Positions 1 to 14,960 are shown, counted from the stretch's first letter. The stretch: 14,960 nucleotides of DNA from Armatimonadota bacterium (GCA_016235455.1 JACRKZ010000022.1:1-14960); one strand, 5' to 3'. Numbers and translations are program-made. Notes: generated from the letters alone by a model not told the origin.

Positions 1-2439
1 CCAACGCTCCTGCTGGTCGCCGTCCATCTGCTGGAGCGCCAGCGTCTGCTTGGCTATGTCCGTCAGTGCAGCCGGTCTGTCATCCTCGATCCGCTCTAGC
101 TCAGCCGCAACGAACCAACAGAAAGCCGCGAAATCGCCAGCGGCGCCAGCGGCCTCGAAGACCGCGTCCTGGTCGTTGCGGATGCGGTCTTCGAGTTCCT
201 CAAGCGCCGCCATTGCGGCGGTGCCCGCGAGCGACGAAAGCACCTCGTTGCCCGCTGCCCGGAGCTCGTTGTGCGGCACGACCTCCTTGCTGTGATGGGC
301 CAGGACCGCTACCCCCTCAGTCTCGCGCATCGCCCGGCCAGCTCTGCCAAACGCATTGAGCAGCTTGGCGCTGTCGACAACCCGTTTGCATTCATCCCCA
401 TGCCGCACGTCGCGACTCGCGACAAACACGCTCTGTACACCCAGGTTCACGCCATCAGTGACAGTGGTTGTGGCGACAACGCAACGCAGCAGGCCGTGGC
501 GCACTGCTCTCTCTACGGCAGCGCGGACGTCATCGGGCAGCGCGCCGGTATGCACAGCTACGCCCGACTGGAGGTAGGTCGCCAGCGAGTGCTGCGTACC
601 AAGGCGGCGATGCACCAACGTCAGCAGATGGTCGAGCCGCTCCAGTGAGTCAGGCGGCGGCAAGTGCAGGCTGATTTCGCGGGCAAGACGGTCCGCCTCA
701 TCTCTTGTCGCGGCAATAACGAGCAACGGCGGCGCCACCGTAGCTAGAGTGGCAGCGATGTAGGCGTTTGTCTTGTAGAGCTGTGTCGAGCCGCCGAGCT
801 TACGCCAGTCCGATGGGCCTGGCTTGGCTTTCGTCGCTGCCTGGTCAAGGACGCCGATTGCCTTCGTTGTCCGGCGGTAGCTGCCAGGCGTGGCCGTTGG
901 CCGCAAGGCTCCGTAGAGCGGCACGCGTCGGCGCCGGAAACCACTGCGTCCCGGAGCCAGCTCCTCGGCGGCGTCCCACTCAGGCTCAGTGGAGTAGAGG
1001 CAGGTCAATCGTCGAGGACCGCGCCAGTCGCTGTGGCGCTCAGTCGCTGGAGCGCCATCTAGCGCCAGCCATTGCGCGAAGTGGGTGCGGTTCCCGATCG
1101 CCGCCGATATCAGCAGGATGCGGCTTGGCTGGTCTTTCAGCCGGAAATGGAGATAGGAGACGGCAGCCTCCAACGTCCAGCCTCGATGCTCATCAGCGAC
1201 ATGGTGCGCTTCATCAAAGACGAACATGCCGAACCGCGACACCACCTCGTCGGCGTTGGTGCGGAGCAGGGCGGCCAAGCGCTCAGGCGTCATCACCTCC
1301 ACTTCGGCGCGCGAATCCACGTCCTCAGCGACGCTGCCCCAGTCGGGCCTTTCTGGTGCGACGTGCTTGTTCAAAGGTCGTAGTCTGCGCCCCAGATCGG
1401 CGCGTATCTCAGCGCAGAGGCTCCGCGATGTAGCCACATAGCAGACACCGGTTGACTCGGACACAAGGTGCGTGGCCACGGCAATCTGTGCCAAGGCCGT
1501 CTTGCCAGCGCTGGTTGGCATAGTCAGCACCATGCGGCGAGCGTCGCTGTCGAGTAAGCCTGGTGCCCCTGCCCCGGTGGGCGCCAGGAACGCTAGTTGT
1601 GGTGGCCATAGCGTCACCACGCGTGGTGGCACATGTGCTAGCGCTCGACGGACCCAGGCCGGCACCTGAGGCGGCAGCACGGTCCAGATCGAACTAGCCA
1701 CCAGTTGGTCGGAGATCCGCCGCAGATGCCACGCCACCCAGCGAGAGGAGTGGTCCGCCGTAGCACCTGGGGCGCGAAGCGCGGCGTCAAAGCAACGTCT
1801 TGCATCTCCCATCCCCTCGCCATCGGTCAGGAATCGCAGACAGTGGTGGATCCCTTCGACGCAGTGCGCGGCAGCTGCGAACTGCGTTCGATCGATATCG
1901 TCGACGTCCCAACGTGTAGGCAGTCCGCTAGCCTGGGTGACGGCGCTGCGCAGGTGTCGGGCCAGGAAGTCAGTGTCCATGCCCAGGAGCGCGATGCCGA
2001 AGTCGAGGCAGATGCGGTCAAGATCGCTGATGATGTCGTAATGCGCTGGCTCCGGCCTGGCTGCCCGTCTACTCAAGGCTACGGCGTTAGGATCGGCGCC
2101 AGAGCCTAGCGCACACACCTGGGCTGCGAACGTGTAGCACGCCCGATCCATCCAAGGCCGGTCTTGGCTGCGCAGCGCTAAGTCAAGGATGTGTCCAGCG
2201 ACGGCAAAGGCTGCTCGCTGGCGGGCAACGCCATACCGTTCGGTAGCCTCGGCGCTCGAAGCAACTGCCAGCAGTAGCCAGCCGGTGTTCTCCAGAGCCG
2301 CGTCGGCCCCATCGATGTCGCCAAAGAGCAGGCCAAGCTCAGCAGAGGCAATCCGATCAGCCAGCTCCGTTGGGTCCGGCCAGCCTGGGCCATCGCCAAG
2401 GGCAGTCTGGAGCAGTGCCCGAGCTAGAGCCCTTTCCAT
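1..2439 (-). CDS. Ski2-like SF2 DEAH-box helicase, Hachiman HamB-like; 3' end truncated by the left window edge (813 codons visible)
   Basis: Manual translation gives an uninterrupted frame from ATG 2439 (MERALARALLQTALGDG..., AAGGA upstream) to position 1. Motifs: Q motif LWPPQ (1597-1611), Walker A MPTSAGKT (1498-1521), Ia YVATSRSLCAE, Ib VMTPERL, II FVFDEAHH (DEAH 1204-1215) followed by Ski2-type RGWTLE, III ISAA, IV LLVIAATRDEA, GVAVHTG, V VATTTVTDGVNL, VI NAFGRAGR (334-357). About 275 aa of N-terminal extension precede the Q motif. Overlaps the upstream nuclease ORF by 16 nt. Confidence 0.9.
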   Translation of the reverse strand, partial: MERALARALLQTALGDGPGWPDPTELADRIASAELGLLFGDIDGADAALENTGWLLLAVASSAEATERYGVARQRAAFAVAGHILDLALRSQDRPWMDRACYTFAAQVCALGSGADPNAVALSRRAARPEPAHYDIISDLDRICLDFGIALLGMDTDFLARHLRSAVTQASGLPTRWDVDDIDRTQFAAAAHCVEGIHHCLRFLTDGEGMGDARRCFDAALRAPGATADHSSRWVAWHLRRISDQLVASSIWTVLPPQVPAWVRRALAHVPPRVVTLWPPQLAFLAPTGAGAPGLLDSDARRMVLTMPTSAGKTALAQIAVATHLVSESTGVCYVATSRSLCAEIRADLGRRLRPLNKHVAPERPDWGSVAEDVDSRAEVEVMTPERLAALLRTNADEVVSRFGMFVFDEAHHVADEHRGWTLEAAVSYLHFRLKDQPSRILLISAAIGNRTHFAQWLALDGAPATERHSDWRGPRRLTCLYSTEPEWDAAEELAPGRSGFRRRRVPLYGALRPTATPGSYRRTTKAIGVLDQAATKAKPGPSDWRKLGGSTQLYKTNAYIAATLATVAPPLLVIAATRDEADRLAREISLHLPPPDSLERLDHLLTLVHRRLGTQHSLATYLQSGVAVHTGALPDDVRAAVERAVRHGLLRCVVATTTVTDGVNLGVQSVFVASRDVRHGDECKRVVDSAKLLNAFGRAGRAMRETEGVAVLAHHSKEVVPHNELRAAGNEVLSSLAGTAAMAALEELEDRIRNDQDAVFEAAGAAGDFAAFCWFVAAELERIEDDRPAALTDIAKQTLALQQMDGDQQERW

Positions 2440-3305
2440 AGCTCTTCCTTCACAGCCGTTGCGAAACAGCCCACTGAGTCGATGCCAGAGAGCACGGCGC
2501 GGAACTGGACCGGCCCCGTCATCCAAGGGAGGTGCTTGGACCAAGAGTCGAACGCCGCCGCGGTCGCCGTCGTAGCATGGGACATTGGCCCCACCACCAC
2601 GGCCCCGGCACCGGCCTGCTCGCTTCTGTTGGCCCACAGCTCTGGTGCACTCATGAACAGGTCCGCTGCCCCTGTGTGGCCGATCTGCGGTCGGTCCTGC
2701 ACCAGGCTGGCCAAGTAGCGCCCGCCGTTCTCGGCCAACTGACGGCAGGCCTCGGCTGCTGATCCAGCCAAGTCCGCAGTGTCGGTTGCCTTGCTTTCCC
2801 ACAGCCTGAACGAGTGCTGTGCAATGCCCGTCTCGAACACAACGAAGCCGTCGGCACCGTGGTCAGTAGGGTCCAGCTTTGGCCGGCGCGCGTATGTGGG
2901 TGACGTATCTACCGTTCCGACGATGCAGAGGAAGTAAAGGAGGTTCTCAGCTACGAGCCCCTTTAGGTGTTTGGCCGAGTCGGTCCTGAATCCCGTCATG
3001 ATATGGTCGGAGATAAGGTTCTGGTCCCCCTGTGTGCGCGTCGGTGAGCTGCCATCGGCCTTCTCTCGCCAGCTCGAGTAGTGTCTTGGCAGGTGCTCCA
3101 GGCGGAGTGCTGCAATCCCATCAGCGACGCGCGAAGCCAGTTCCGCGCGGGCCGCCGTTGGCGCAATGCACCGCCCGATTGGCGGCGCATTGCTGAGGAC
3201 GTCGCGTTGTAGTAGCCGCACGATTTGGACAGCTTTGCCGATTAAGTCTGGCGAAGCGAACGTGCATTGTGAATGGCGAGTCTGCATGTTACGCATCCAG
3301 GACAC
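2424..3305 (-). CDS. PD-(D/E)xK-family nuclease, Hachiman HamA (DUF1837)-like
   Basis: ~290-aa ORF with the pattern GLVAENLLY...PK...DHGADG (2847-2864)...LWESK (2790-2801). This resembles the E...D...ExK catalytic layout of HamA. It is translationally coupled to the helicase. Start uncertain: GTG 3305, ATG 3296 or ATG 3287. Confidence 0.7.
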   Translation of the reverse strand: MSWMRNMQTRHSQCTFASPDLIGKAVQIVRLLQRDVLSNAPPIGRCIAPTAARAELASRVADGIAALRLEHLPRHYSSWREKADGSSPTRTQGDQNLISDHIMTGFRTDSAKHLKGLVAENLLYFLCIVGTVDTSPTYARRPKLDPTDHGADGFVVFETGIAQHSFRLWESKATDTADLAGSAAEACRQLAENGGRYLASLVQDRPQIGHTGAADLFMSAPELWANRSEQAGAGAVVVGPMSHATTATAAAFDSWSKHLPWMTGPVQFRAVLSGIDSVGCFATAVKEELWKGL

Positions 3306-3309
3306 TCAG

Positions 3310-3315
3310 ATTGTA
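3310..3315 (-). promoter_or_regulatory. Possible -10 element (TACAAT) for the nuclease-helicase operon
   Basis: TACAAT on the minus strand just upstream of the candidate starts, conspicuous in GC-rich DNA. No convincing -35. Confidence 0.3.
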
Positions 3316-3410
3316 CTACGTTGTTCAGTGTGCGGAGTACCGGTGCCAACGGCCGCTCCGCGGAATCCTGCATCTCCATGCGCCATACTACCCAGAGAAG
3401 GAGCCCGGCC

Positions 3411-4250
3411 ATGTCCATCCGCGTCCGCCTGTCCGCCGTCGTCACGCTGTTGCCCAGCGCTGCGCTGTTGCTCGTCGCGCTGCCCGCGATGGCCCAGCCT
3501 GCCTCGCTCATGCCCGACAAGCCGTCCGCCGCCGCCTTGCGTGCCGAGGTGGAGACGCTGGCCTGGCTCGGGTCGATCGGCTTGTCGCCGGCCGAGGCCA
3601 AGAGCTGGATCACCGCGTTGGACGGCGTGCCGGCGCTGCTGGCCAACATCGAGTCGCAGGAGAACGCGCCCGAGGTCATCGCCGCGCTGACGGCCCTGCG
3701 CACCAAGGCGCTGGCTGGCGAGCCGGTCACCGACGAAGACTGGGCCACCGTGGAGGAGGCGCGCTGCCGCGTCGTGGCCGCGCGCGCGCTGGACGAGCCC
3801 GAGGCGCGTCGCCAGCAGGCCCTGCTGCCGCTGACCACGAAGCTGACGGTCGACCTGTCGCGCCCGCAGCAGCTGGTTCTGGCCGACAACGAAGTGCTGG
3901 AAATGACCAACCACTTCATGGGTGTCATCGTCGAGGGCCAGCGTGAGACCACCGACGACTGGCGCCAGCAGGTCAAGGAGATGCTCGACTCCGTCGCCCA
4001 GCGCTACGAGGCTAAGGGCGAGGCCGTGGCCAAGAAGGTTGGCGAACTGATCGAAGCCGGCCGAGCCATCAAGGCCGAGCAGTGGGCCAAGGAGCGCGTG
4101 ACACTGCGCGACGAGCTCGTCACCGCCCTGGGTGTGAACCACGAGGCCCGCGAACTGGCGCAGGAGGCCGCCGCCGGCCTGGCGCGCGCGGTCATCGAAC
4201 GGCCGCAATTGCCGGCCATGCTCAAGCTGTGGGCCGCGGCGCCGCGCTGA
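3411..4250 (+). CDS. Hypothetical exported, probably alpha-helical protein (279 aa)
   Basis: ATG 3411 preceded by AGAAGGAG. Sec signal peptide MSIRVRLSAVVTLLPSAALLLVALPAMA|Q. Strong G/C third-position codon bias. No recognisable catalytic motif. Confidence 0.8.
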   Translation: MSIRVRLSAVVTLLPSAALLLVALPAMAQPASLMPDKPSAAALRAEVETLAWLGSIGLSPAEAKSWITALDGVPALLANIESQENAPEVIAALTALRTKALAGEPVTDEDWATVEEARCRVVAARALDEPEARRQQALLPLTTKLTVDLSRPQQLVLADNEVLEMTNHFMGVIVEGQRETTDDWRQQVKEMLDSVAQRYEAKGEAVAKKVGELIEAGRAIKAEQWAKERVTLRDELVTALGVNHEARELAQEAAAGLARAVIERPQLPAMLKLWAAAPR

Positions 4251-4252
4251 GC

Positions 4253-4280
4253 GGCGTCGGGCGTGAGGCGTGAGGCGTCG
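4253..4280. repeat. Heptamer tandem repeat, 4 x GGCGT(CG/GA)
   Basis: GGCGTCG-GGCGTGA-GGCGTGA-GGCGTCG directly after the stop codon at 4250. Confidence 0.7.
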
Positions 4281-4330
4281 GGGCCATCTGGTCGCCGCTC
4301 TCGCTTGCGCCCAGTCCCACGGCTCTGCCC

Positions 4331-4359
4331 TTGACGTCGCACCCTCTCCGTAGCATCAT
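4331..4359 (+). promoter_or_regulatory. Sigma70-type promoter of the nik operon
   Basis: TTGACG (4331-4336), 17-nt spacer, CATCAT (4354-4359), about 30 nt upstream of GTG 4388. Confidence 0.55.
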
Positions 4360-4377
4360 TGCGGGCAATCGTGCTAC
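4350..4377. promoter_or_regulatory. NikR-type operator GTAGCA-N16-TGCTAC, embedded in a 46-bp palindrome (4341-4386)
   Basis: Perfect inverted half-sites 4350-4355 and 4372-4377 separated by exactly 16 bp, the architecture of the E. coli NikR box GTATGA-N16-TCATAC. It overlaps the -10 of a NikM-type transporter operon. Confidence 0.7.
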
Positions 4378-4387
4378 GGAGAGGGTC

Positions 4388-5335
4388 GTGCATCTGCCGG
4401 ACGGGTTCTTGAGCGCCTCGGTGAGCGGAGCGATGTACCTGGCCAGCGGCAGTGCCGTGGCGGTGGCGCTGCGGCGGGCCGAGGCGGACGGCGACGGCGC
4501 CGACCCGGGCGAGCGCGGCCGGTCGACGGTGATGATGGGTATTGTCGCCGCGTTCCTGTTCGTCGCGCAGATGATCAACTTCCCCGTGACCGGCGGCACC
4601 AGCGGCCATCTGCTGGGCGCTGCCCTGGCCACAGCGCTGCTCGGACCGTGGCGGGCCATGCTGGTCATGGCCGTGGTGGTCGGGCTGCAGGCCTTCATCT
4701 TTGCCGACGGCGGCATTGCCGTGCTGGGCGCCAATCTGTTCAACATGGGTGTCGCCGGCTGTCTGGCGAGCGGGCTGGTCCTGAGCCTGGCGGGCGCCGA
4801 CCATCGTCGCCGCCGGCTGGCCCTGGCCGCCGCGGCGTGGCTGAGTGTCCTGCTCGGCGCGGGGCTCACGGCGCTGGAGATCGGGCTTTCGGGCCGTGTG
4901 CCGCTGGCGGTGGTGCTGCCGGCCATGCTGTCGGTCCACGCGGTCATCGGGCTGGGCGAGGCGTTGGTGTCGGTGGCGGCCTGGTCGCTGCTGGTCGGCG
5001 CGCGGCCCGACCTGGCCACGGCCAGTCGCGAGCCGGGCGGTGAGCCGTGGCGGCTGGCGCTGGTGTTGGCGCTGGGCCTGGCCCTGGTGCCGCTGGCCAG
5101 TTCGCTGCCCGACGGGCTGGAGTCCGTGGCCGAGCGCCAGGGCTTCGCACAGGCGGCCGCGCCGGCTCGGCCGGCGCCATTGGCGGACTACGCGTTGCCC
5201 GGCCGCCGCGTCACGGGGTTCGACGCGCTGGGTACGTACCTGTCCGCCGGCGTGGGCATGGTGGGCTGCGCGGGGCTGATGCTGCTGGTGGGCGCGGTGC
5301 GCCGTCGCCGCCCGGCCGAGGCAGCGGGCTCGTGA
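4388..5335 (+). CDS. nikMN: ECF Ni2+/Co2+ transporter substrate component, NikM(CbiM)-NikN (PDGLE) fusion, 315 aa
   Basis: GTG 4388 after GGAGAGG gives the N-terminus MHLPDGFL (NikM-type MH(I/L)PDG, not CbiM MHIMEG). Contains QMINFPVTGGTSGHLLG, QAFIFADGGIAVLGANLFNMG and a C-terminal ASSLPDGLE (PDGLE) domain. Confidence 0.9.
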   Translation: MHLPDGFLSASVSGAMYLASGSAVAVALRRAEADGDGADPGERGRSTVMMGIVAAFLFVAQMINFPVTGGTSGHLLGAALATALLGPWRAMLVMAVVVGLQAFIFADGGIAVLGANLFNMGVAGCLASGLVLSLAGADHRRRRLALAAAAWLSVLLGAGLTALEIGLSGRVPLAVVLPAMLSVHAVIGLGEALVSVAAWSLLVGARPDLATASREPGGEPWRLALVLALGLALVPLASSLPDGLESVAERQGFAQAAAPARPAPLADYALPGRRVTGFDALGTYLSAGVGMVGCAGLMLLVGAVRRRRPAEAAGS

Positions 5336-6123
5336 CCAACACCGTGTGGCTGCTGTTGGGTGCCGGGCTGGTGGCCGCGGCGGCGGGGCTGAGCTTCTCG
5401 CGATCGTTCTTCTCGGGCCATGCCGGGCTGGGCGTGCTCGAGCCTATCGACCGCGACGGTCCGCTGCACCGTCTGCCCGCGCGCATCAAGTTGTTGGCGG
5501 TGATCACGCTGGCGCTGCTGAGCGCGTTCATCCCGGCGGGCCGGTTGGCGGTGCCGGCGTTGCTCGTGTTGGGCGCGGTGCTGGCCGCGCGCGTGCCGCT
5601 GGGCCGCTTCCTGGGCCGGCTGGGCGAGCTGGTGCCGTTCGTGCTGCTGGCCGTGCTGGGCGTGGCGCTGCGCGGCGACACGGCGTTGCTGGCGGTGACG
5701 CTCGGCCGCGCGGTGATGACCGTGATGGCGCTGACGCTGCTGGTCACCACGACCAGCGTGCCGGCGCTGGTGCAGGCCGCGCGGCAACTGGGTCTGCCGG
5801 ACCTGTTGGGCACGACGCTGGCGCTGGCGCTGCGCTATCTGAGCCTGTTGTGCGACGAAGGCAGCCGCCTGTCGCTGGCTTTCCAGGCTCGTGCCGTGGG
5901 TCCGCGCGACCTGCGACTGGCGCGGCCCCTGGGCCGCATGGTGGGCTCGCTGGCGGTGCGCAGCCTGGAGCGCGGCGAGCGCGTCCACCAGGCCATGCTG
6001 GCGCGCGGTTTCGACGGGCATCTGCCCTCGCTGTCGGCCGATGTACCGGCGCGCTGGCGTCACTGGGTGGGACTGGCGGCGTGGGTCGCCGCGTTGGGAG
6101 CGGCCGCATGGCCCAACTGGTGA
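5332..6123 (+). CDS. nikQ: ECF transporter transmembrane T component (NikQ/CbiQ), 263 aa
   Basis: GTGA overlap with the upstream stop. Contains LHRLPARIKL, LALRYL, QARA and RSLERGERVHQAMLARGFDG (Ala-Arg-Gly motifs of EcfT/CbiQ). Multiple TM segments. Confidence 0.88.
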   Translation: MTNTVWLLLGAGLVAAAAGLSFSRSFFSGHAGLGVLEPIDRDGPLHRLPARIKLLAVITLALLSAFIPAGRLAVPALLVLGAVLAARVPLGRFLGRLGELVPFVLLAVLGVALRGDTALLAVTLGRAVMTVMALTLLVTTTSVPALVQAARQLGLPDLLGTTLALALRYLSLLCDEGSRLSLAFQARAVGPRDLRLARPLGRMVGSLAVRSLERGERVHQAMLARGFDGHLPSLSADVPARWRHWVGLAAWVAALGAAAWPNW

Positions 6124-6824
6124 TCGACGCTCTGAGCTACAGCTATCCTGACGGCACGGCCGCGCTGGACGGTGTGAGTTTGACCCTCGAGCCGGGCGAA
6201 CGCGTCGGCCTGGTGGGTCCCAACGGTGCGGGCAAGTCGACGCTGCTGCTCCATGCGGTGGGCCTGCTGCCGGGCCGCGGCCGCGTGACGGTGGCGGGCC
6301 TGGATCCTGACCGCCACCCGCGCGAGGCGCGTAAGCAGGTGGGCCTGCTGTTCCAGGATCCCGACGACCAGTTGTTCATGCCCACCGTGGCTGAGGACGT
6401 GGCCTTCGGCCCGCTCAATCTGGGCCTGACGCGCGAGCAGACGCTGGCGCGCGTGGCGGAGTCGCTGGCCGCGGTGGGCCTGAGCGGACTGGGCCACAAG
6501 CTGCCCCAGCACCTGAGCCTGGGTCAGCGGCGGCGCGCGGCGCTGGCCACGGTGCTGGCCATGGGCTGCCGCACGCTGGTGCTCGACGAGCCCACGGCCA
6601 ACCTCGACCCGCGCGGCCGGCGCGAGTTGCTGGCACTGCTGACCGGGCTGGAAAGCACGCTGCTGGTGGCCACCCACGACCTCGACGCGGTGCTCGACCT
6701 GTGCCCGCGCACGGTGCTGCTCAGCGGCGGCCGCATCGTCGCCGACGGCCCGACGGAGACGCTGCTGAGCGACGCGGCGCTGATGGACGAGCACGGGCTG
6801 GAGGTGCCCTGGCGGCTGGCGTGA
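6108..6824 (+). CDS. nikO: ECF transporter ATPase (NikO/CbiO), 238 aa
   Basis: ATG 6108 after GGGAG. Walker A GPNGAGKST, Q-loop FQDPDDQLF, signature LSLGQRRR, Walker B LVLDEP, H-loop ATHD. Confidence 0.93.
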   Translation: MAQLVIDALSYSYPDGTAALDGVSLTLEPGERVGLVGPNGAGKSTLLLHAVGLLPGRGRVTVAGLDPDRHPREARKQVGLLFQDPDDQLFMPTVAEDVAFGPLNLGLTREQTLARVAESLAAVGLSGLGHKLPQHLSLGQRRRAALATVLAMGCRTLVLDEPTANLDPRGRRELLALLTGLESTLLVATHDLDAVLDLCPRTVLLSGGRIVADGPTETLLSDAALMDEHGLEVPWRLA

Positions 6825-6873
6825 GGGCCAGGCCGTCGGGTGCGCCGGCGATCCATGCGGAGCATAATGAGGC

Positions 6874-7206
6874 GTGGAGAGCATGATGGTTGACTGGGAC
6901 ACGCTGCTTCAGCCGGCGGCGTTGGGGCTGGCCAATTCGGTCGCTAGCATCGCGACGACCGAACGCCTAGACCTGTCCAACGTGCCGTACGTAGAGGCCA
7001 CGGTCGTGCTGCCCGCGGGCATCACCGACGACCGGCTCAACTGGGATCTGGTTGCGCCCATCCACGCCAAGGTGTGGGATTGCATCGCTGCGCATATCGA
7101 GGCCGGCTACCCGCATGTGACGTTCATCACGCTCGAGGACTACCAGGCCGCTCAACGTGGCGACTTCTACGACGAGGCCGCCGAGGGTCGCGATGCCGCT
7201 GCCTGA
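6874..7206 (+). CDS. Small acidic protein, possibly a degenerate minimal nucleotidyltransferase (MNT)-like antitoxin partner of the HEPN gene
   Basis: ~106-110 aa (GTG 6874, or ATG 6883/6886 after GGAG). CATAAT at 6863-6868 suggests its own promoter. Overlaps the HEPN start by 14 nt. The YPHVTFITLEDY tail resembles MNT C-termini, but there is no GS/DxD catalytic motif. Confidence 0.5.
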   Translation: MESMMVDWDTLLQPAALGLANSVASIATTERLDLSNVPYVEATVVLPAGITDDRLNWDLVAPIHAKVWDCIAAHIEAGYPHVTFITLEDYQAAQRGDFYDEAAEGRDAAA

Positions 7207-7704
7207 TTCGCTGCTCGCCGTGGCGCGCGACCTGTCCGCTCTGGATCCGAGGCGGCCCCGGCAGGCTTCTCTCCGTCGCGCGGTGTCGACGGCGTATTAC
7301 GCACTGTTCCATCTGCTGGCCGGCGAGGCAGCCAGACGGATGTGCGGCGCCGACGCCAGACTTCGCGAGTCTGCCTTTCGCGACTTCACGCATAGCGGCG
7401 TGAAGTCGGTCATCGCCGATTCGCTCATGCCAGCAGCGAACCGCCCCAAGCGGCTACAGGAGTTGCTCGGCAGCGCGGCGCTGAGCCCCCAACTCCAGGA
7501 CGTCTGCCAGGCCTCCACGACTCGCTCGCCGAGCGTGAGCGAGCCGACTATGAGTTGGGCAGGTACTACCGTCGATCGATGGTCACGCTTCTGCTCTCTC
7601 AGGTGGAGCGCGCCTTCGCCTCGTGGCAGGCCGTGCGAGCCACCGAGCAAGGTCAGCAGTTCATGATGGCGCTCGTGCTTTACAGTCGCGGCCGGAGCCG
7701 CTGA
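7193..7704 (+). pseudogene. HEPN-domain protein, frameshifted near 7514 (true pseudogene or sequence error)
   Basis: N-terminal half from ATG 7193: LLAVARDL...LRRAVSTAYYALFH...FTH. The expected C-terminal half HDSLAERERADYEL...FMMALVL is in the -1 frame and ends at TGA 7702-7704. Inserting one T (GCC TTC CAC) restores a 170-aa protein. Confidence 0.8.
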
Positions 7705-7753
7705 CCAGAGCGGCGCCGAGCCGCCACCACGGCCCGGCACCACGCTGCCAGCC

Positions 7754-8614
7754 CTACTTCGCCGGCGTCATCGCCGGCAACTGGATCATCGGCGTCGCGT
7801 CGCCACTGACGGTGGGCAACTTGCCATCCCACTTGGTCACGGCGTCCTTCTGGTTCTGCACCTGTTGCCAGCGGACCATGGTGTCGGTCAGGCTGGCCTG
7901 CAACTCGCGGTTAGCCTCGGCTTGACCCTTGGCCTCCTCGATCTTCTGCTGCGCCAGCGCCTTGGACTCACGCACCTTGTTCTCGGCGGCCACGGCCTGG
8001 TTGGTCGCGGCGATGCTGGCCGTGATGGAGTCCTGGATCTTGGGGTCGAGCCGCAGATCGGAGATGAACGACAGCATCTCCACGCGGAACCCGTCCGGCT
8101 CGAGCTTCTTGATCAGGTCGGCCTTGACCGCCTCCAGCAGCTTGCCCTTCTCCTCGCCGTAGATCTTGACGATCGGCATGGTCGAGGCGCGCACGTTCAG
8201 CGCGTCACGCACCTGGCTGCGGAGATTGGTGGCGACTATTTCGTCGATCGGCCGGCGGAACTTCTGGAACAGCACCGGCACCTTCTCAGGGTCAAGCGTG
8301 AAGGCCAGCGACACGTCGACGTTGATCTGCGCGCCTTCGGCAGAGTTGAAGCGCATGGCCTGGTCGACGGCGGCGCCCTCGTCCTTGCTCATCGTCCAGT
8401 TGACCGTCTGCATGAACGTGGGGAACCGGTAGATCGTCTCGGTCATGGGGTTGAAGGCCACGCGGCCCGTGCCGATGGGTTTGGCTTCGACGCCTTTCTT
8501 GCGGCCCAGCGCATTGACCTTGATGCCCACATAGCCCGGCGGGATGCTGGCGCAGCCGGTCAGGAACACAAACGACAGGGACAGCAGAATCCCCATTCTT
8601 CTCGCGGTTCTCAT
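7754..8614 (-). CDS. SPFH/Band 7 (prohibitin-like) domain lipoprotein, 286 aa
   Basis: ATG 8614, lipobox FLTG|C21. Contains IPPGYVGIKV, FPTFMQTVNW, an Ala/Glu/Gln-rich coiled coil (AVAAENKVRESKALAQQKIEEAKGQAEAN) and the C-terminal KWDGKLP typical of this SPFH subgroup. Confidence 0.9.
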   Translation of the reverse strand: MRTARRMGILLSLSFVFLTGCASIPPGYVGIKVNALGRKKGVEAKPIGTGRVAFNPMTETIYRFPTFMQTVNWTMSKDEGAAVDQAMRFNSAEGAQINVDVSLAFTLDPEKVPVLFQKFRRPIDEIVATNLRSQVRDALNVRASTMPIVKIYGEEKGKLLEAVKADLIKKLEPDGFRVEMLSFISDLRLDPKIQDSITASIAATNQAVAAENKVRESKALAQQKIEEAKGQAEANRELQASLTDTMVRWQQVQNQKDAVTKWDGKLPTVSGDATPMIQLPAMTPAK

Positions 8615-8793
8615 CGACGTACTCGCTTTCGGAGCAGGCAGAAGCCCGCCACGCTCACGTGGACAAAGGCCAGCGCCAGGGCGACGCCGAGCCAGACCTG
8701 CCCATCGGACGGGGCATTGATCAACTCGGCGCACCTGCTCCACACCGCACAGAGCAGGAGCAGATAGGCAATGGCTGGCACGATGTACCGCAT
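8611..8793 (-). CDS. Small two-TM membrane protein (60 aa) coupled to the SPFH gene
   Basis: AAGGTG SD before ATG 8793. Two hydrophobic segments joined by LINAPSDGQV, with a basic cytoplasmic tail RKRVRR. Its TGA overlaps the SPFH ATG (ATGA). Confidence 0.7.
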   Translation of the reverse strand: MRYIVPAIAYLLLLCAVWSRCAELINAPSDGQVWLGVALALAFVHVSVAGFCLLRKRVRR

Positions 8794-8799
8794 GGCGCA

Positions 8800-8824
8800 C
8801 CTTCGCTACTGGCCGTAGCGAAGG
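8800..8824. promoter_or_regulatory. Perfect 10-bp stem-loop covering the SD of the 60-aa gene
   Basis: CCTTCGCTAC-tggcc-GTAGCGAAGG. No U-tract on either side. Confidence 0.5.
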
Positions 8825-8861
8825 CCGAGGCGGTATCGTTCCCCGGGCTGTAGTGTGGTCG

Positions 8862-10202
8862 CTAGAGTGTCCAGCCCGCGCGGTACGGCACCTTGACCCA
8901 TACCGCCGCGTCGTCGCGGTTGGTGACCTTGAGGTTGCCCGCATCCCATTCGATGCGCGCGTCGAGTCGCTTGGCCACGTTGCCGAGCAGGCACATCTCG
9001 GTCAGCGGGCCGCTGTAGGCGAAGTCGGCGCCGGCCTTCTTGCCTTCGCGGATGGCACGGACCCAGTCCATCTCGTGGTTCTCTTCGGGCACGCGCGGGA
9101 TGGTCGGCGCGGGCCGCTTGTAGCCCTCCTGCAAGGCCTGGGGCAGGAGGAACGGGCTGCCGCCGTAGACGCCGGCGACGATCCTGCCTTCGCTGCCGTT
9201 GAAGATGATGCCGCCCTCGTCGGGCAGGTCGATGTCCTGGGGCAGTTCCTCGGGCCGCGGCGGACGGGTGCCCTCGTACCAGGTGAGCTTGAGCGGTGGC
9301 AGGCCGGCCCGCGCGGGGAAGCGGTAGGTGACGATGGCCGACAGCGGATGCGTGTCGGGATTGAGGCCGCAGGAGGTGGCCTCGATACTGCTGGGCGCAC
9401 CCAGCTTGAGCGCCCAGAAGGCCGAATCGAGCGTGTGTGCGCCGCGGTCGCCCATCATGCCCACGCCGAAATCCCACCAGCAGCGCCAGGTGGTTGGGTG
9501 GTAGGCGCGGTGATAAGGCCGCTCGGGCGCCGGTCCCAGCCACAGGTCCCAGTTGAGCCCTTGGGGTATCGGCATGGTCTCCTTGGGCCGCGCCCCCCAC
9601 TGCGAGCTCCAGCCGGCATGGCCCCAGGGGTAGTACGACAGGCTGCACCAGGCGTCGACGCTGCGCACCTCGCCGATGGCGCCGGCCCAGATCCACTCGC
9701 AGATCTTGCGGATCCCGCCGCCCGAATGGCCCTGGATGCCCATCTGCGTGACCACTTTGGTCTCGGCGGCGATGGTGGCGAGCTGGCGCGCCTCCCACAC
9801 CGAGTGGGTCAACGGCTTCTGGCAGTAGACATGCTTGCCCGCGCGCATGGCCGCCGCGGCAATGACCGCGTGGGTGTGGTCAGGCGTGGCGATGACTACG
9901 GCGTCCAAGTCCTTCTGTTGGGCAAACAGCTCGCGGTAGTCGGTGTAGAACTTGGCCCCAGGGAATCGGGCTACGGTGCCCGCGGCATAGTTGGCATCGA
10001 CATCGCACAGGGCGACGATGTTTTCGCCGGTGAGCCGCGCCAGATTGCCACCGCCCATGCCGCCGATGCCGATGCCGGCGATGTTCAGCTTGGTGCCCGC
10101 GGCTGGCGCCTGGGCGCGGGCCGGGGCCGACAGGCCGGCCAGCGCGGCGGCCGCCGCGGCTTGCTGCAAGAAGTGGCGACGACCCGTGGACGGCTCGTTC
10201 AT
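8862..10202 (-). CDS. Tat-exported Gfo/Idh/MocA family NAD(P)-dependent oxidoreductase, 446 aa
   Basis: ATG 10202 after GAGGGAG. Tat signal TGRRHFLQQ...ARA|Q, Rossmann GIGIGGMG, DAVVIATPDHTH, GKHVYCQKP, WDLWLGPAP, WWDFGVGMMGDRGAHTLD. Confidence 0.93.
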   Translation of the reverse strand: MNEPSTGRRHFLQQAAAAAALAGLSAPARAQAPAAGTKLNIAGIGIGGMGGGNLARLTGENIVALCDVDANYAAGTVARFPGAKFYTDYRELFAQQKDLDAVVIATPDHTHAVIAAAAMRAGKHVYCQKPLTHSVWEARQLATIAAETKVVTQMGIQGHSGGGIRKICEWIWAGAIGEVRSVDAWCSLSYYPWGHAGWSSQWGARPKETMPIPQGLNWDLWLGPAPERPYHRAYHPTTWRCWWDFGVGMMGDRGAHTLDSAFWALKLGAPSSIEATSCGLNPDTHPLSAIVTYRFPARAGLPPLKLTWYEGTRPPRPEELPQDIDLPDEGGIIFNGSEGRIVAGVYGGSPFLLPQALQEGYKRPAPTIPRVPEENHEMDWVRAIREGKKAGADFAYSGPLTEMCLLGNVAKRLDARIEWDAGNLKVTNRDDAAVWVKVPYRAGWTL

Positions 10203-10290
10203 GGCTGCAAACTCCCTCGATCGCCGGCCGATTCGCCCTCGTTCGGGTCCCCACCTCCCGCAATTCGGGCCGCGCGGGCCATCTTGGTAG

Positions 10291-10462
10291 TTATCCACAA
10301 CGGTGCTGCGGATAACTTCGGTGGCCGGGAGTCCGACTCGTCCCTGGCGGTCGTTGCCCAACGCGCGCCGAGCCGCATGTCCAGCGGATTTGCCGCCTGT
10401 CAAGTGAATCTGGATCGGCTTGCCAAGCGCCTCGGCCGCGCGGTGGATAACTCGGTGGAAAA
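10291..10462. promoter_or_regulatory. Cluster of four DnaA-box-like 9-mers in a divergent intergenic region
   Basis: TTATCCACA 10291-10299 (+, consensus). On the minus strand: TTATCCGCA 10307-10315, TTATCCACC 10442-10450 and TTTTCCACC 10454-10462. Confidence 0.55.
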
Positions 10463-10491
10463 GGTCCCTCGGAGACGCGGCAGGAGACGGT

Positions 10492-10508
10492 TACAATGGC
10501 GTTAGAAT
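10492..10508 (+). promoter_or_regulatory. Candidate -10 elements for the respiratory operon
   Basis: TACAAT (10492-10497) and TAGAAT (10503-10508), 11 bp apart. No clear -35. This would imply a ~260-nt leader. Confidence 0.3.
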
Positions 10509-10771
10509 GCGGCTTTGCGAGGGTGTAGGGGGCCATGCACGGCCATGCGACGACAGCGGGTGCCGCGGTTCGTCCGACTCGTCGAGAGCGCTATGCTGGG
10601 TCCTCGGCAGCGCGGCCGGCCTGGGTGGTTCGACAGTCGTCCGAGCGCCGAGTTCTTCGCTCGCCAAAACCTTCCGGCGGGCACCCAACAGGTCCTGTCA
10701 CATGGCGGTTGTGTTGCACACTAGGGAAGCTGAGCGGCCCGAGCCGCCGCGGAAGTGAGAGGATGGTAGAC

Positions 10772-11908
10772 ATGGGTCAATTCCCCGCCATCGATGTGAT
10801 CCCATTGCCGGCACCGGTCTGGCTGTTCAAGCTGCTGCATGTGCTGCTGCTGTCGCTGCATTTCGTCTGTGTTCAGGCGATGCTTGGCGGGTTGCTTGTC
10901 GCCGCGTTGTGGAGCCTGAAGGGCGGTCGCACGGCGGGCAGCCTGTTGGGTGAGGCCTCGCGCCAGGTGACGCGCACGCTGCCCACGCTCATGACCTATG
11001 TGATCAACCTCGGCGTGCCGCCGCTGTTGTTCGTGCAGGTGCTGTTCGGCCATGCGTTCTATGCGGCCAGCATCGTCATCGGCGCCTGGTGGATCAGCGT
11101 CATCCTCCTGCTGGTATGCATGTACTACCTGTTGTACGTGGCCAGCCAGCGTGCGCTAGACCAGCGGCCCTACTGGGGTGCTCTGGCCGCCTCGCTGCTG
11201 CTTGGCGTGGTCATCGCGTTCATCTACAGCACGTTGATGACGCTCATGCTGCGGCCCGAGCAGTGGGCTGACCTGTATGCGCTCAACGCGCATGGCACGT
11301 CGCTGCCGCCCCTCGACCCGACCAAGCTGCCCCGCTGGGGCTACATGCTGTGCGGCGGTCTGACGGTCGGCGGCGTGGCCGTGGTGGCGCTGGGCTCGAT
11401 GCGCTTCCAGCGCGCCGAGCTGCGCGAGGTCATGTTCCGCGAAGGCGGGCGCATCGCCGCGCTCGGCGTGGTGCTGCAGATGGTCATGGCCACGCTGGTC
11501 GCCACCCGGCAGCCGCTGGTGGTGCATGACCTGATCGGCGAGAGCTTCTTCTACCACGGCATGCAGTTGCTGTGGGTGCCCGCGGCGCTGGTGGTGCTGG
11601 CGCTGGCCGGCTTCCTGGCCACCCGGGCGTCGACCGTGTCGGCCGACGCCGCCAAAGCCAGGCGGATCGGCTGGGGCGCCTCGCTGGCGGCCGTGGTGCT
11701 GACGCTGGTGGCCGCGGCTTACCGCGACGGCGTGCGCGACCTGACGCTGAAGGCCAAGGGCTTCGATGTGTGGAGCCTGCCGGTGACCCCCAACTACCTC
11801 GTGCTGACCATGTTCCTGGTGGTCACGGTGATCACGTTGGCCATCGTGGGCATCCTGATCGCCACGGTGGTGCGGGCCCAGCCGGCCGAGGAGGCAGTGA
11901 CCCAATGA
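10772..11908 (+). CDS. Polytopic membrane protein, second (CydA-fold paralogue/subunit II-like) subunit of a cytochrome bd-like reductase, 378 aa
   Basis: ATG 10772, 9 nt after GAGAGG. Roughly 9-10 TM segments. Motifs IPLPAP..LF..L...LHF....LGG, INLGVPPLLFVQVLFG..FY, LMLRPEQW and RDGVRD loosely parallel the CydA-like gene at 13555. First gene of a coupled operon. Confidence 0.65.
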   Translation: MGQFPAIDVIPLPAPVWLFKLLHVLLLSLHFVCVQAMLGGLLVAALWSLKGGRTAGSLLGEASRQVTRTLPTLMTYVINLGVPPLLFVQVLFGHAFYAASIVIGAWWISVILLLVCMYYLLYVASQRALDQRPYWGALAASLLLGVVIAFIYSTLMTLMLRPEQWADLYALNAHGTSLPPLDPTKLPRWGYMLCGGLTVGGVAVVALGSMRFQRAELREVMFREGGRIAALGVVLQMVMATLVATRQPLVVHDLIGESFFYHGMQLLWVPAALVVLALAGFLATRASTVSADAAKARRIGWGASLAAVVLTLVAAAYRDGVRDLTLKAKGFDVWSLPVTPNYLVLTMFLVVTVITLAIVGILIATVVRAQPAEEAVTQ

Positions 11909-12459
11909 GCGAGGAAAAGGAACAGGCTGTGGACCAGCCGGCGGTCGAAGCGGCCGAACCGGTCGAGCCCGAGGCGGGGTGCTGCTGCCGCTGCGGTGAG
12001 CAGTCCGCCGACGAGCCCAGCGCGCCTGGCCGGCGCGCGGCCCTGGCCGCCGTGGTCGGCGGCGTGGGCTTGGTCTATGCCGCGGGGCTGGCCTATCCCG
12101 TCTACAAATACCTGGCCACGGCGGCGGAGCTGTCGGCGGCCGAGGAGAAGCAGACCGAGATCAGCCTGGACGGCGCCGACACCATGGCGCCGGGCACGGC
12201 CATGGTCTTCAAATTCGGTGGCCGGCCCACGCTGCTCATCCATCATCCCGACAGCACCTGGTCGGCGATGACAGCGGTGTGCACGCATCTGGGTTGCACG
12301 GTCGCCTATCAGGCCGACCAGAACCGCATCCACTGCGCCTGCCACGGTGGTGTGTACGACCCCAAGACGGGTGCCAACGTCTCCGGTCCGCCGCCCAAGC
12401 CGCTGAAGACCTACGCCGTGGCGGTTGCCGCCGGGAAAGTGGTGGTGTCCCGTGCCTAA
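11905..12459 (+). CDS. Rieske [2Fe-2S] subunit of a Rieske/cytochrome b complex, 184 aa
   Basis: ATGA overlap and GAGGAGG SD. Tat-type RR plus TM anchor (GRRAALAAVVGG...YPVYKYL). Box 1 CTHLGC, box 2 CACHGGVY, and GPPPKPL loop. Confidence 0.95.
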   Translation: MSEEKEQAVDQPAVEAAEPVEPEAGCCCRCGEQSADEPSAPGRRAALAAVVGGVGLVYAAGLAYPVYKYLATAAELSAAEEKQTEISLDGADTMAPGTAMVFKFGGRPTLLIHHPDSTWSAMTAVCTHLGCTVAYQADQNRIHCACHGGVYDPKTGANVSGPPPKPLKTYAVAVAAGKVVVSRA

Positions 12460-13540
12460 GCTCAAGGAGTTCTGCTGCACGGCCTGGAACTGGCTCGATG
12501 AGCGGCTCGGCATCGCGCCGCTGGTGGAGCACGCCAAGCACAAGACCGTGCCGCAGCACAAGCACTCGTTCTGGTACTACTGGGGCGGCCTGTGCCTGTT
12601 CTTCTTCATTGTGCAGGTACTCACCGGCCTGATGCTGATGGTCTACTATCGGCCGGGTCCCGATGCCTACGACTCGGTCCGCCGGATCACCACCGAGGTG
12701 CAGTTCGGCTGGCTGGTGCGCTCCATGCACTCGTGGTCGGCCAACCTGATGGTCTTCGCGGTGATGGTGCACATGTTCAGCGTGTTCTTCATGAAGGCCT
12801 ACCGCCGGCCCCGCGAGTTCGGCTGGTGGACCGGCCTGGGGCTGCTGGGCGCGGTCATGGTGTTCGGCTTCTCGGGCTACCTCCTGCCCATGGACGACCT
12901 GGCCTTCTTCGCCACGCGCGTGGGCCTCAGCGTCCCCGAGATCATGCCGGGCGCCAAGCCGATCATCACCGCCATCGCCCGCGGCGGCGGCGATGTGGGC
13001 CCCAACACCGTGCAGCGCTTCTTCCTGCTGCACGTCATGCTGTTGCCCATGATCTTCTCGGCGCTGCTGGGCATCCACCTGTGGCTGGTGCAGAAGCACG
13101 GCAACGCGGTGCCGCAGAGCGAAGCCGACAAGCCTGAGGAAGCGCGCCGCAGCGTGCCGTTCTTCCCCAACTTCATGCTGCGCGACGTGGCGGTGTGGCT
13201 GCTGATGCTCAACCTCTTGGCCATGCTGGCCGCCTTCTTCCCCTGGAAGTTGGGCGTGCCTGCTGACCCGTTGGCGGCGGCTCCGGCGGGCATCCACCCC
13301 GAGTGGTACTTCATGAGCCAGTTCGTCGTGCTCAAGATCCTGGGCAACTGGTTGCCCGGTGTGCTGGGCGAGTATGCGGGCGTCGGCCTGTTTACCGCCG
13401 GCATGGTCCTGTGGGGCCTGATACCGCTGTTCGACCCCGAGACGGCTGGTGGCAAGCGTGGCCGGCAGGTGACGTACTTCGGCCTGTTCGTGCTCGTTGC
13501 TCAGATCGTCCTGACCGTGTTGGCCTACCGACTGGCCTGA
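12452..13540 (+). CDS. Cytochrome b of a Rieske/cyt b complex (b6-like N-domain and subunit IV-like C-domain in one chain), 362 aa
   Basis: GTG 12452 overlapping the Rieske stop. Contains W.DERL, YYWGG, heme ligands RSMH-x13-H and LLH-x14-H, FSGYLLP, PFFPNF..RD and Qo motif HPEWYF. About 7 TM helices. Confidence 0.95.
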   Translation: MPKLKEFCCTAWNWLDERLGIAPLVEHAKHKTVPQHKHSFWYYWGGLCLFFFIVQVLTGLMLMVYYRPGPDAYDSVRRITTEVQFGWLVRSMHSWSANLMVFAVMVHMFSVFFMKAYRRPREFGWWTGLGLLGAVMVFGFSGYLLPMDDLAFFATRVGLSVPEIMPGAKPIITAIARGGGDVGPNTVQRFFLLHVMLLPMIFSALLGIHLWLVQKHGNAVPQSEADKPEEARRSVPFFPNFMLRDVAVWLLMLNLLAMLAAFFPWKLGVPADPLAAAPAGIHPEWYFMSQFVVLKILGNWLPGVLGEYAGVGLFTAGMVLWGLIPLFDPETAGGKRGRQVTYFGLFVLVAQIVLTVLAYRLA

Positions 13541-13554
13541 AGCGAGGCGCCGTC

Positions 13555-14960
13555 ATGAACTATCCGCATTGGGATGTGCCCATCCTCGGCAGTGGTCTGG
13601 TGATCGCGCTGATCGCCATCTTCCACGTCTTCGTGTCGCACTTTGCCGTCGGCGGTGGCTTCTTCCTGCCCATGATGGAGTCCGCTGCTGTCCGCCAAGG
13701 CAAGCCCGAGTGGCTTGAGGTGCTGCGGAAGCACACCAAGTTCTTCCTGATCCTCACCGGCGTCTTCGGCGCGGTCACAGGTGTGGCCATCTGGTTCGCC
13801 ATTGGCCTGGCCAGCCCCGAGGGCACCAGCACCCTGATCCACTACTGGGTCTTCGGTTGGGCCATGGAGTGGGGGGTCTTCCTCATTGAGTTGACCACCA
13901 TCGCCGTCTACTACTACCTGTGGGACAAGGTCGACCGGCGCACGCACATCCGCATCGGCTGGCTGTACGCCATCTCTTCGTGGCTCACGCTGGTGATCAT
14001 CAACGGCATCTTGACGTTCATGCTCACCCCGACACCCGAGTGGCTGGACCAGGTGGGCTCGGGCTCCGAGACCTACCTCTTCTGGCACGCGTTCTTCAAC
14101 GCGACCTACTGGCCGAGCCTCATTGCGCGCACGCTCATCTGCCTCTCGTTGGCTGGTGTGTACGCTCTGATCACCGCCAGCCGGCTGGATGGCGAGACGC
14201 AGGGCGACCTGAAGGTGGAGATCATCGGCTGGTCGCGGCGGTGGATGCTGCCCGCCTTCTGCCTGCTGCCGTTCGTCATGGCCTGGTACGTGGCCGTGGT
14301 GCCGCCCGAGAGCCGGGCGTTGCTGACGCGCGGCATCGCCAACTCGGCAGCCGGTCAGTTCGGTGCACCCACCCGCATGGCGCTGGGCATGTTGATCAGT
14401 TCGTTCGCCACGGTGGTGGTGGCCTACCTGTGGACCGGCAAGCACACCGCCCGCGACTTCGGGCTGGGTGCGGCGCTGGGCATCGCCTTCTGTGCCTATG
14501 CGGCCTTCGGCACCACCGAGATGACCCGCGAGATGCTGCGCAAGCCGTACGTCATCAGTAAGTACTCGTTCTCCAACGGTACGCGCCCCGTCGACACCGC
14601 CGAGCTGAACGCCAAGGGCTACCTGACCAACACCATCCTGGCCACGCCCGAGCAGAAGGCCCGCTGGGCAGCCGGCAACAAGGACCTGTATCAGGGCGAG
14701 TTGATGTACCGCGGCCAGTGCCTGTCGTGCCACACCGTCGACGGCTATCGCTCCATGCGCAAGCTGCTCGCCGGCCGCGACCGCAAGGGCATCGAGAACC
14801 TGCTGCAGGTGCTCCACGAATACAAGCCCGACTCCCCCTACATCGGCTACATGCCGCCGCTGGTGGGCACCGCCTTGGAGATCGAGGCGCTGGGCGACTA
14901 TCTGGCGACGCTGAGCGTCAAGCCGGAAACGGCGGCCACGGCCGCCCCGCCTGCCGCCGC
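13555..14960 (+). CDS. Cytochrome bd-family (CydA-like) subunit I fused to a C-terminal class I cytochrome c domain; 3' end beyond the window
   Basis: Manual translation, open from ATG 13555 (GAGG SD) to the edge, 468 codons: MNYPHW...IFHVFVSHFAVGGG, FGAVTGV, WAMEWGVFLIE, THIRIG, NGILTFMLTP, FFNATYWPS, TEMTREMLRKPY (cf. CydA ExGRQPW). Then GELMYRGQCLSCH (CxxCH 14719-14733), distal YMPP and EIEALGDYLATL. Confidence 0.85.
   Translation, partial: MNYPHWDVPILGSGLVIALIAIFHVFVSHFAVGGGFFLPMMESAAVRQGKPEWLEVLRKHTKFFLILTGVFGAVTGVAIWFAIGLASPEGTSTLIHYWVFGWAMEWGVFLIELTTIAVYYYLWDKVDRRTHIRIGWLYAISSWLTLVIINGILTFMLTPTPEWLDQVGSGSETYLFWHAFFNATYWPSLIARTLICLSLAGVYALITASRLDGETQGDLKVEIIGWSRRWMLPAFCLLPFVMAWYVAVVPPESRALLTRGIANSAAGQFGAPTRMALGMLISSFATVVVAYLWTGKHTARDFGLGAALGIAFCAYAAFGTTEMTREMLRKPYVISKYSFSNGTRPVDTAELNAKGYLTNTILATPEQKARWAAGNKDLYQGELMYRGQCLSCHTVDGYRSMRKLLAGRDRKGIENLLQVLHEYKPDSPYIGYMPPLVGTALEIEALGDYLATLSVKPETAATAAPPAA

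Follow-up and report, generated by a model that had tools for sequence, protein, structure and literature searches.

The question raised by this locus of an Armatimonadota bacterium (GCA_016235455.1) is where a Rieske iron-sulfur protein and a cytochrome b deliver their electrons when no cytochrome c1 is encoded beside them and their genes are enclosed between those of two proteins resembling subunits of bd oxidases. The locus lies in JACRKZ010000022.1:1-14960, hereafter the window, a stretch of 14,960 bases that corresponds to bases 1-14960 of a contig of 18,486 bases. The module consists of four genes, here called A to D, all located on the + strand, as are all the features of the module given below. 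Gene A (10772-11908) encodes a 378-amino-acid membrane protein with 9 helices, a bd-fold paralogue of D resembling OR-C1b; gene B (11905-12459) a 184-amino-acid Rieske iron-sulfur protein; gene C (12452-13540) an unsplit cytochrome b of 362 amino acids; and gene D (13555-14960 in the window, continuing to contig base 15075) a 506-amino-acid CydA-like protein fused to a haem c domain and resembling OR-C1a. A and B share an ATGA overlap (B starts with the ATG at 11905), B and C overlap by 8 nucleotides (GTG start of C at 12452, stop of B at 12457-12459) and 14 nucleotides separate the stop codon of C (13538-13540) from the ATG of D at 13555, a tight packing that matches exactly the overlaps and the gap given in the initial annotation of this DNA. 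That annotation had also named the second and third genes as a Rieske protein and a cytochrome b with an intact PEWY motif, the fourth as a CydA-like protein fused to a cytochrome c and both flanking membrane proteins as bd-like, assignments that all held. From gene content, protein folds, residue conservation, gene order, fusion proteins and a modelled contact of cytochrome b with D, all obtained by computation, we on balance favour the view that the four products form one membrane complex, in which a c1-less Rieske/cytochrome b unit is joined to a bd-like heterodimer of A and D and probably reduces O2.

The D protein matches the CydA family PF01654 over residues 16-201 only (model positions 5-189 of 418, E-value 2.3e-17). 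Its AlphaFold2 (AF2) model, with a predicted local distance difference test score (pLDDT) of 83.4, comprises 8 transmembrane helices and, after them, a helical domain bearing a single CxxCH; this C-terminal part is a periplasmic class-I-like monohaem c domain that ends in an Ala/Pro-rich tail. When the model was compared with the PDB using Foldseek, the ten best matches were all CydA chains (E-values 1e-6 to 1e-4, 14-17% identity), headed by 8b4o_A (1e-6) and 5doq_A (2e-6), and a profile of D matched the Geobacillus CydA 5doq_A with an E-value of 5.3e-7. Conservation of the reaction site was assessed in an alignment of 28 homologues of D drawn from several phyla (57% mean column identity). H24 (codon 13624-13626) is invariant and aligns to H21 of 5doq_A, a histidine which we take to be a ligand in the bd di-haem site. 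The invariant R192 (14128-14130) occupies the position of His186, presumably the haem b558 ligand of CydA, and the link between helices 6 and 7 of the model measures about 20 residues, so that D is predicted to lack a Q-loop; of the features of a canonical CydA, neither the haem b558 ligands (His186, Met393) nor the Q-loop were found in D. A weak second stretch of the alignment with 5doq_A (5.1 bits, independent E-value 70) sets the invariant E326-x-x-R329-K-P of D on E-x-G-R-Q-P-W, which we assume to be a CydA motif. Two further invariant residues, E105 (13867-13869) and E112 (13888-13890), align to E101 and E108 of 5doq_A, the proton-channel glutamates referred to as E99 and E107 in E. coli numbering (Murali et al. 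2021). The sole haem c attachment motif in the four proteins is CLSCH at 14719-14733 (residues 389-393 of D). Its residues C389, C392 and H393 are invariant, as is M433 (14851-14853), the likely sixth ligand of haem c, and exactly one CxxCH was found in 78 of 79 D homologues. It thus seems that the di-haem reaction site is retained in D, whereas the quinol/b558 entry has been exchanged for a haem c.

The first gene is less easily recognised, as the A protein has no match in Pfam or in NCBIfam (the latter giving no match over cut-off for any of the four proteins) and its profile finds no PDB sequence even at an E-value of 10. It nevertheless proved bd-like, as first annotated, when structure and profiles were compared. 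The AF2 model of A (pLDDT 89, 9 helices) retrieves CydA and CydB chains in Foldseek (8b4o_A with an E-value of 2.2e-5, 5doq_A with a TMq of 0.75), and hhalign places the profiles of A and D in register over 199 columns (82.6% probability, E-value 9.7e-6), setting the RDGIRD motif of A (residues 318-323) on REMLRK of D. Among 26 aligned homologues of A, the histidine of transmembrane helix 1 (TM1), H30, is invariant and no glutamate is. This is the pattern of the 'b'-type paralogues, which are missing the proton-channel glutamates (Murali et al. 2021). CxxCH was found in none of 72 A homologues. We conclude that A is a distant haem-c-less paralogue of D with the CydA/CydB fold. The ATG of A at 10772 is preceded by AGGA 8 nucleotides upstream and agrees with the N-termini of homologues. 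Two distant A-like proteins carry other domains: P0261 (651 amino acids) is fused to CusF and SCO1/SenC copper-chaperone domains, which hints that some relatives of A may be linked to copper handling, and P0196 (560 amino acids) is fused to a Tll0287-like domain.

Genes B and C encode the hallmarks of a Rieske/cytochrome b complex, namely the 2Fe-2S boxes, the four haem histidines and PEWY. B belongs to PF00355 (2.7e-14) and begins with an RR signal-anchor; its cluster boxes, read from the sequence, are CTHLGC (12280-12297) and CACHGG (12334-12351). Among 74 Rieske homologues RR is present in all, CxHxGC in 68 and the CxCH motif of box II in at least 67 (the 12 commonest forms, all CxCHGGxY). 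C matches PF13631 (3.1e-41), PF00033 (6.6e-39) and PF00032 (1.4e-7). An alignment of 24 cytochrome b homologues shows the haem histidines H93, H107, H194 and H209 to be invariant, together with PEWY (13298-13309), which is also present in 71 of 71 homologues. The 14- and 15-residue spacings of the haem histidines are b6-like by criteria that we assume to apply here, and a Trp stands at what we take to be the position of the haem ci cysteine of b6. C contains neither a haem ci cysteine nor a CxxCH, the latter being found in 0 of 71 cytochrome b homologues.

No gene for a dedicated cytochrome c1, cytochrome f or dihaem c subunit was found in the operon, in the inserts that some related loci contain or in conserved flanks. 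The initial annotation had noted that no c1- or f-type gene lies among the four, and the flank of D, read past the end of the window, extends this observation. The 3' part of D, taken from locus L003, comprises a short N run followed by the Ala/Pro-rich tail, ending at contig base 15075. After another 21 bases there is a terminator-like hairpin (contig 15096-15134, 17-bp stem with 12 GC), and beyond it only minus-strand genes, whose products are a secreted protein bearing a copper-amine-oxidase N-terminal domain and an AAA ATPase. Since D is followed by this hairpin and by convergent genes, the unit consists of four genes, and no c1-like gene follows. On the 5' side lies a divergent gene for a Gfo/Idh/MocA oxidoreductase; a σ70-like promoter was looked for upstream of the module and not found.

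The arrangement is kept well outside this genome. Of 8000 candidate proteins scored, 2678 belong to the large D family with E ≤ 0.001, and none of the 120 best is less than 53% identical to D. When each species was represented by a single genome, a scan confirmed at least 587 places, the best 80 of which were retained as surveyed loci. When searched by tblastn with the four proteins of the window, 75 of these 80 loci showed A-B-C-D in this order on one strand. The other five are cut by contig ends, with D within 1600 bases of the end, and none is a counter-example; the four-gene arrangement is therefore far beyond chance, and the synteny survey that had been proposed for this gene order yields no exception to it. 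Relative to the window copies, B, C and D have median identities of 55%, 60% and 54%, and A one of 42%; D, at 50-61% across phyla, is unusually conserved. By record titles the hosts fall into at least 12 phylum-level groups, including Acidobacteriota (the largest), Verrucomicrobiota, Armatimonadota, Lentisphaerota, Hydrogenedentota, Sumerlaeota, Fibrobacterota, Nitrospirota, Planctomycetota, a metagenome-assembled genome of the Chlorobi group, FCPU426 and others; the carriers include abundant soil and freshwater groups. Two labels are probably the result of mis-binning, because the sequences fall inside the clusters of other phyla: the 'Actinomycetota' locus L013 is nearly identical to the Blastocatellia locus L016, and the 'Dongiaceae' locus L044 stands among Verrucomicrobiota. 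Eleven of 13 Acidobacteriaceae-type loci with gaps of more than 150 nucleotides hold an extra open reading frame (ORF) in the B/C or the C/D interval. These were considered as a possible hiding place for a c1, and the ORFs scanned proved to encode no cytochrome but a short-chain dehydrogenase (PF13561) and, in another case, a 23S-rRNA-IVS protein (PF05635). Such insertions, for example L028:3942-4706 and L031:5522-5935, leave the gene order of the operon undisturbed. Flanks were considered in the same way, and clustering over the 80 loci gave no conserved ORF with CxxCH, nor any neighbour gene conserved across the set.

A further argument comes from relatives in which A and D stand by themselves. 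A D-like gene was found in 11 of 40 other genomes sampled from the phylum of the window, and in four loci (L086, L087, L088 and L091) it lies directly beside an A-like gene, with no Rieske/cytochrome b genes within about 6 kb. These un-nested D-like genes are 32-49% identical to D by tblastn (the match in L091 being partial) and their products have the same architecture of PF01654 plus cytochrome c; two further D-like matches of about 40% (L085 and L089) are cut by contig ends. The pairs match the adjacent OR-C1a/OR-C1b arrangement described in the Murali et al. 2021 preprint. In a quick maximum-likelihood tree of 86 D proteins, for which a careful search is unfinished and which contains long branches, 81 nested and 5 paired D proteins are split by a branch of length 2.22 (Shimodaira–Hasegawa-like approximate likelihood ratio test, SH-aLRT, 100). 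The A profile, run against 1.84 billion representatives, matched 1636 proteins at E ≤ 0.001 and 536 at 1e-30; the longer matches include two A::Rieske fusions (P0143 and P0148), and one representative, P0243, is a CydA-like::A fusion. The adjacent pairs and P0243 thus make A and D partners, and P0143 and P0148 tie A to the Rieske protein. In the models, the 9 helices of A would leave its C-terminus in the cytoplasm, where the Rieske anchor must start, and the 8 helices of D would place the haem c domain, and any A following it, in the periplasm; the topologies of the fusions fit a 9-helix A and an 8-helix D.

Contact between the two halves of the putative complex was modelled with cytochrome b (24-row alignment) and residues 1-455 of D (28-row alignment). 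The interaction prediction score from aligned errors (ipSAE) for this pair is 0.64 (runs 0.67, 0.59 and 0.64), and the best of 3 controls gave 0.00; when the tool was calibrated, 116 of 157 solved complexes attained the ipSAE mark, as did 2 of 215 mismatched pairs. At least 95% of contacts are common to the three runs, and the partner has a pLDDT of at least 82. The predicted interface involves residues 261-320 of D, that is helices 7 and 8, and residues 235-264 and 80-88 of cytochrome b, so that the helices of D leading into the haem c domain would rest on the cytochrome b helix that precedes the PEWY loop. PDB releases up to April 2026 hold no solved complex like this one, nor any structure of the family, which makes memory an unlikely source of the score. 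The model supports a contact of cytochrome b with D.

From these elements we infer an electron path, O2 as acceptor and an energetic gain. Quinol, probably menaquinol, would be oxidised at the Qo site of cytochrome b, where PEWY is intact; one electron would be recycled through the two b haems in the manner of a Q-cycle, and the other would pass to the Rieske cluster, whose head would deliver it to the one haem c, in the C-terminal part of D. This haem would functionally replace both cytochrome c1 and the missing haem b558, and would feed the di-haem site in the first four helices of D. There the acceptor, most likely O2, would be reduced with protons taken from the cytoplasm via E105 and E112, with A pairing with D as CydB does with CydA. 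On the textbook stoichiometries of the Q-cycle and of bd oxidases, the yield would be about two charges per electron, compared with one for a canonical bd oxidase. The idea that the fused haem c stands in for c1 had already been put forward in the initial annotation and gains support from the single haem c in D, the lack of a c1 gene and the model of cytochrome b with D.

We then asked what else the genome could use for respiration. The host genome is 93% complete, and the operon holds its only PF00033 cytochrome b and its only PF01654 gene. Its sole PF00115 gene encodes a 770-residue protein (C112:4968-7280), which a PDB sequence search matches to solved quinol-dependent nitric oxide reductases (qNOR) with an E-value of 1.2e-255, and which is accordingly assigned as a qNOR; the full ORF had no match in NCBIfam, and a scan of a 60-residue N-terminal piece likewise gave no match. 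COX2, CydB (PF02322) and FixO were not found in the 93% of the genome that is available, and among five genomes of the family of the window PF00115 was found in three and COX2 in none. Many ORFs encode multihaem cytochromes c, with 18, 11, 9 and 8 CxxCH motifs on contigs C85, C4, C6 and C151, and on C151 a five-haem ORF adjoins a four-haem ORF, an NrfA/NrfH-like arrangement by motif count only. This set suggests versatile anaerobic respiration. Subject to the missing 7% of the genome, the operon is the only complex III of the organism and its only visible candidate for O2 reduction.

The same context makes it conceivable, if unlikely, that the same supercomplex works on an acceptor other than O2, such as nitric oxide (NO), H2O2 or a nitrogen oxide, or serves mainly in detoxification and not in energy conservation. 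The genome is equipped for anaerobic respiration of nitrogen oxides, with the qNOR and the multihaem ORFs including the NrfA-like one. The commonest neighbour of the operon in the survey is a gene for an Rrf2-family regulator (PF02082, 7.4e-29), situated upstream in 16 of 80 loci and divergent in 13 of them (for example L064:1966-2481 on the − strand; the gene is not in the window), and canonical bd oxidases presumably handle NO and peroxide. However, the residues conserved in D are those of the O2-reducing site and proton channel of bd oxidases, the named carriers belong mostly to aerobic or microaerobic heterotroph lineages, and a dedicated qNOR is already present in the genome.

Another reading, to which we likewise assign a low probability, would make the complex a quinol:cytochrome c reductase and nothing more, with the haem c of D substituting for c1 to feed soluble or other periplasmic cytochromes and the bd-like parts serving as anchors or as haem carriers for another purpose, so that no terminal acceptor would be reduced. 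It would suit a genome whose sole Rieske/cytochrome b unit coexists with abundant periplasmic multihaem cytochromes in need of a quinol-linked donor or acceptor, as well as the limitation of the likeness to CydA to four helices of D. The invariance of H24, E105 and E112 and the 50-61% identity of D are however hard to square with a passive anchor, and the pairs of D and A that occur without Rieske/cytochrome b argue for a function of the D-A pair of its own; moreover, the family is classed among oxygen reductases on residues of the H24/E105/E112 type (Murali et al. 2021). The least probable alternative, two co-transcribed but separate enzymes (an ordinary Rieske/cytochrome b complex and a cytochrome c oxidase of OR-C type) connected through a diffusible cytochrome c whose gene lies elsewhere, can appeal to the un-nested D-A pairs, whose presumed donor is free cytochrome c, as has been suggested for OR-C (Murali et al. 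2021), and to the fact that a shared operon is in itself no proof of contact, but it would leave the Rieske/cytochrome b unit incomplete for want of a c1-type acceptor and sits poorly with a nested order invariant in 75 of 75 informative loci, with the A::Rieske fusions and with a cytochrome b-D interface scoring 0.64 against 0.00 for controls.

Several points weigh against a single membrane complex of A to D that reduces O2. The proposed complex is known from sequence and models. In D, only the first four helices score against PF01654, identity to solved CydA is about 15%, haem types b and d are not readable from sequence, and the reading of E326 and R329 as the glutamate and arginine of the CydA motif, drawn from a weak stretch and an assumed motif, is a hint only. 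The score for cytochrome b and D is a model confidence obtained from shallow alignments (24 and 28 rows), and the model was built without the cytochrome b dimer, the Rieske protein and A. The A::Rieske fusions may be single-indel artefacts, because A and B overlap by ATGA, and they are known only from unnamed metagenome proteins. Other oxidases may seem to be absent because 7% of the genome is missing. In Acidobacteriota, the largest host group, the module need not be the main oxidase, since all 24 genomes analysed there also have type A haem-copper oxidases (Eichorst et al. 2018). RNA support for the operon is weak: three bioreactor metatranscriptome runs from three studies contain only 5-7% of the sampled words, and the 12 short RNA contigs (95-97% identity), some of which bridge the A/B and C/D junctions, leave most of the operon uncovered. 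As DNA carry-over is possible in such libraries, these data were not used as evidence.

Elsewhere in the window, a set of genes for CbiM(-PDGLE), CbiQ and an ABC-ATPase at 4331-6824 (+) forms an ECF-type cobalt or nickel uptake system, and the G+C content of the CbiM/CbiQ stretch, 72-75%, is above that of the remainder of the window. On the − strand, a large DEAD/ResIII-type helicase ORF (1-2802) runs off the start of the window and is preceded by an ORF of 293 amino acids without a Pfam family (2424-3305).

A c1-less Rieske/cytochrome b unit joined to A and D would, if real, be the first bd-family enzyme wired to a Q-cycle, and the module a natural experiment on the loss of c1 by complex III. 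We offer more tentatively, and with some doubt, the wider proposal of a widespread obligate 'bc-bd' supercomplex, in which the Q-cycle feeds a bd-type O2 site through the fused haem c, roughly doubling the charge yield of bd, and which in lineages like that of the window would be the only O2 reductase. The matter has a practical side, as the routine label of D in source databases is 'cytochrome ubiquinol oxidase subunit I' or 'cytochrome bd-type quinol oxidase subunit 1'. Bd-type catalytic subunits of Acidobacteria have been counted as high-affinity oxidases, one of them footnoted 'with a cytochrome C domain' (Eichorst et al. 2018), and surveys may count D among the high-affinity quinol oxidases. 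Should D be unable to oxidise quinol and require Rieske/cytochrome b, such inferences on O2 affinity and energy yield need revisiting.

Compared with canonical CydAB (PDB 5doq, 6rko and 7ose), the module shares the fold of both large subunits and keeps in D the TM1 histidine and the two glutamates of transmembrane helix 3. It differs by the absence of a Q-loop, the Arg at the position of the b558 histidine, the fused haem c, the lack of a PF02322 CydB and a predicted electron donor that is a Rieske centre and not quinol. The actinobacterial CIII2CIV2 (bcc-aa3) is an obligate supercomplex that contains a haem-copper oxidase and a separate dihaem QcrC. As proposed here, its Rieske/cytochrome b unit is wired directly to a terminal oxidase, through a haem c bound to the membrane and with no soluble carrier in between, whereas our module would use a bd-family oxidase whose own subunit includes the haem c. 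Green sulfur bacteria have a c1-less Rieske/cytochrome b with a membrane-anchored cytochrome cz. In that system, too, the Rieske centre presumably reduces a haem c domain tethered to a membrane subunit of the partner, but the partner is a photosynthetic reaction centre and not a bd-type reductase.

Closer parallels exist within the bd superfamily. In Nitrospira, CIII_1, which consists of Rieske and cytochrome b only, clusters with bd-like_1 and bd-like_2, and a III-IV supercomplex has been speculated upon (Mundinger et al., PMC6606698). Both cases thus present a c1-less complex III core co-located with bd-like proteins. Unlike A and D, those of Nitrospira are OR-N family members in the classification of Murali et al., and their clusters contain separate cytochrome c genes and an NxrC-like subunit instead of a nested module of four genes. 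We found no description of the four-gene module in the literature, the work of Murali et al. being judged by its main text. The nearest relative is OR-C, which with OR-C1a and OR-C1b was defined by phylogenomics, with a cytochrome c suggested as donor (Murali, Gennis and Hemp; Murali et al. 2021). OR-C1a has 8 helices and a C-terminal haem c and stands beside OR-C1b in the preprint (Murali et al. 2021), an arrangement that agrees with the 'OR-C type' named in the initial annotation. Like OR-C, D resembles CydA in its first four helices, including the residues of the O2 site and proton channel, and has no quinol site (no Q-loop, Arg at the b558 histidine) and 8 helices followed by a C-terminal periplasmic haem c; like OR-C1b, A is a paralogue without the proton-channel glutamates and is adjacent to D in the un-nested relatives. 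The main text of the preprint makes no mention of Rieske and proposes free cytochrome c as donor, and A is modelled with 9 helices in place of the 8 of OR-C1b. In contrast to OR-C1a/b, the paralogues are here split by the Rieske and cytochrome b genes, with A first. The module is thus made of ordinary parts, joined by a wiring that is undescribed and highly conserved.

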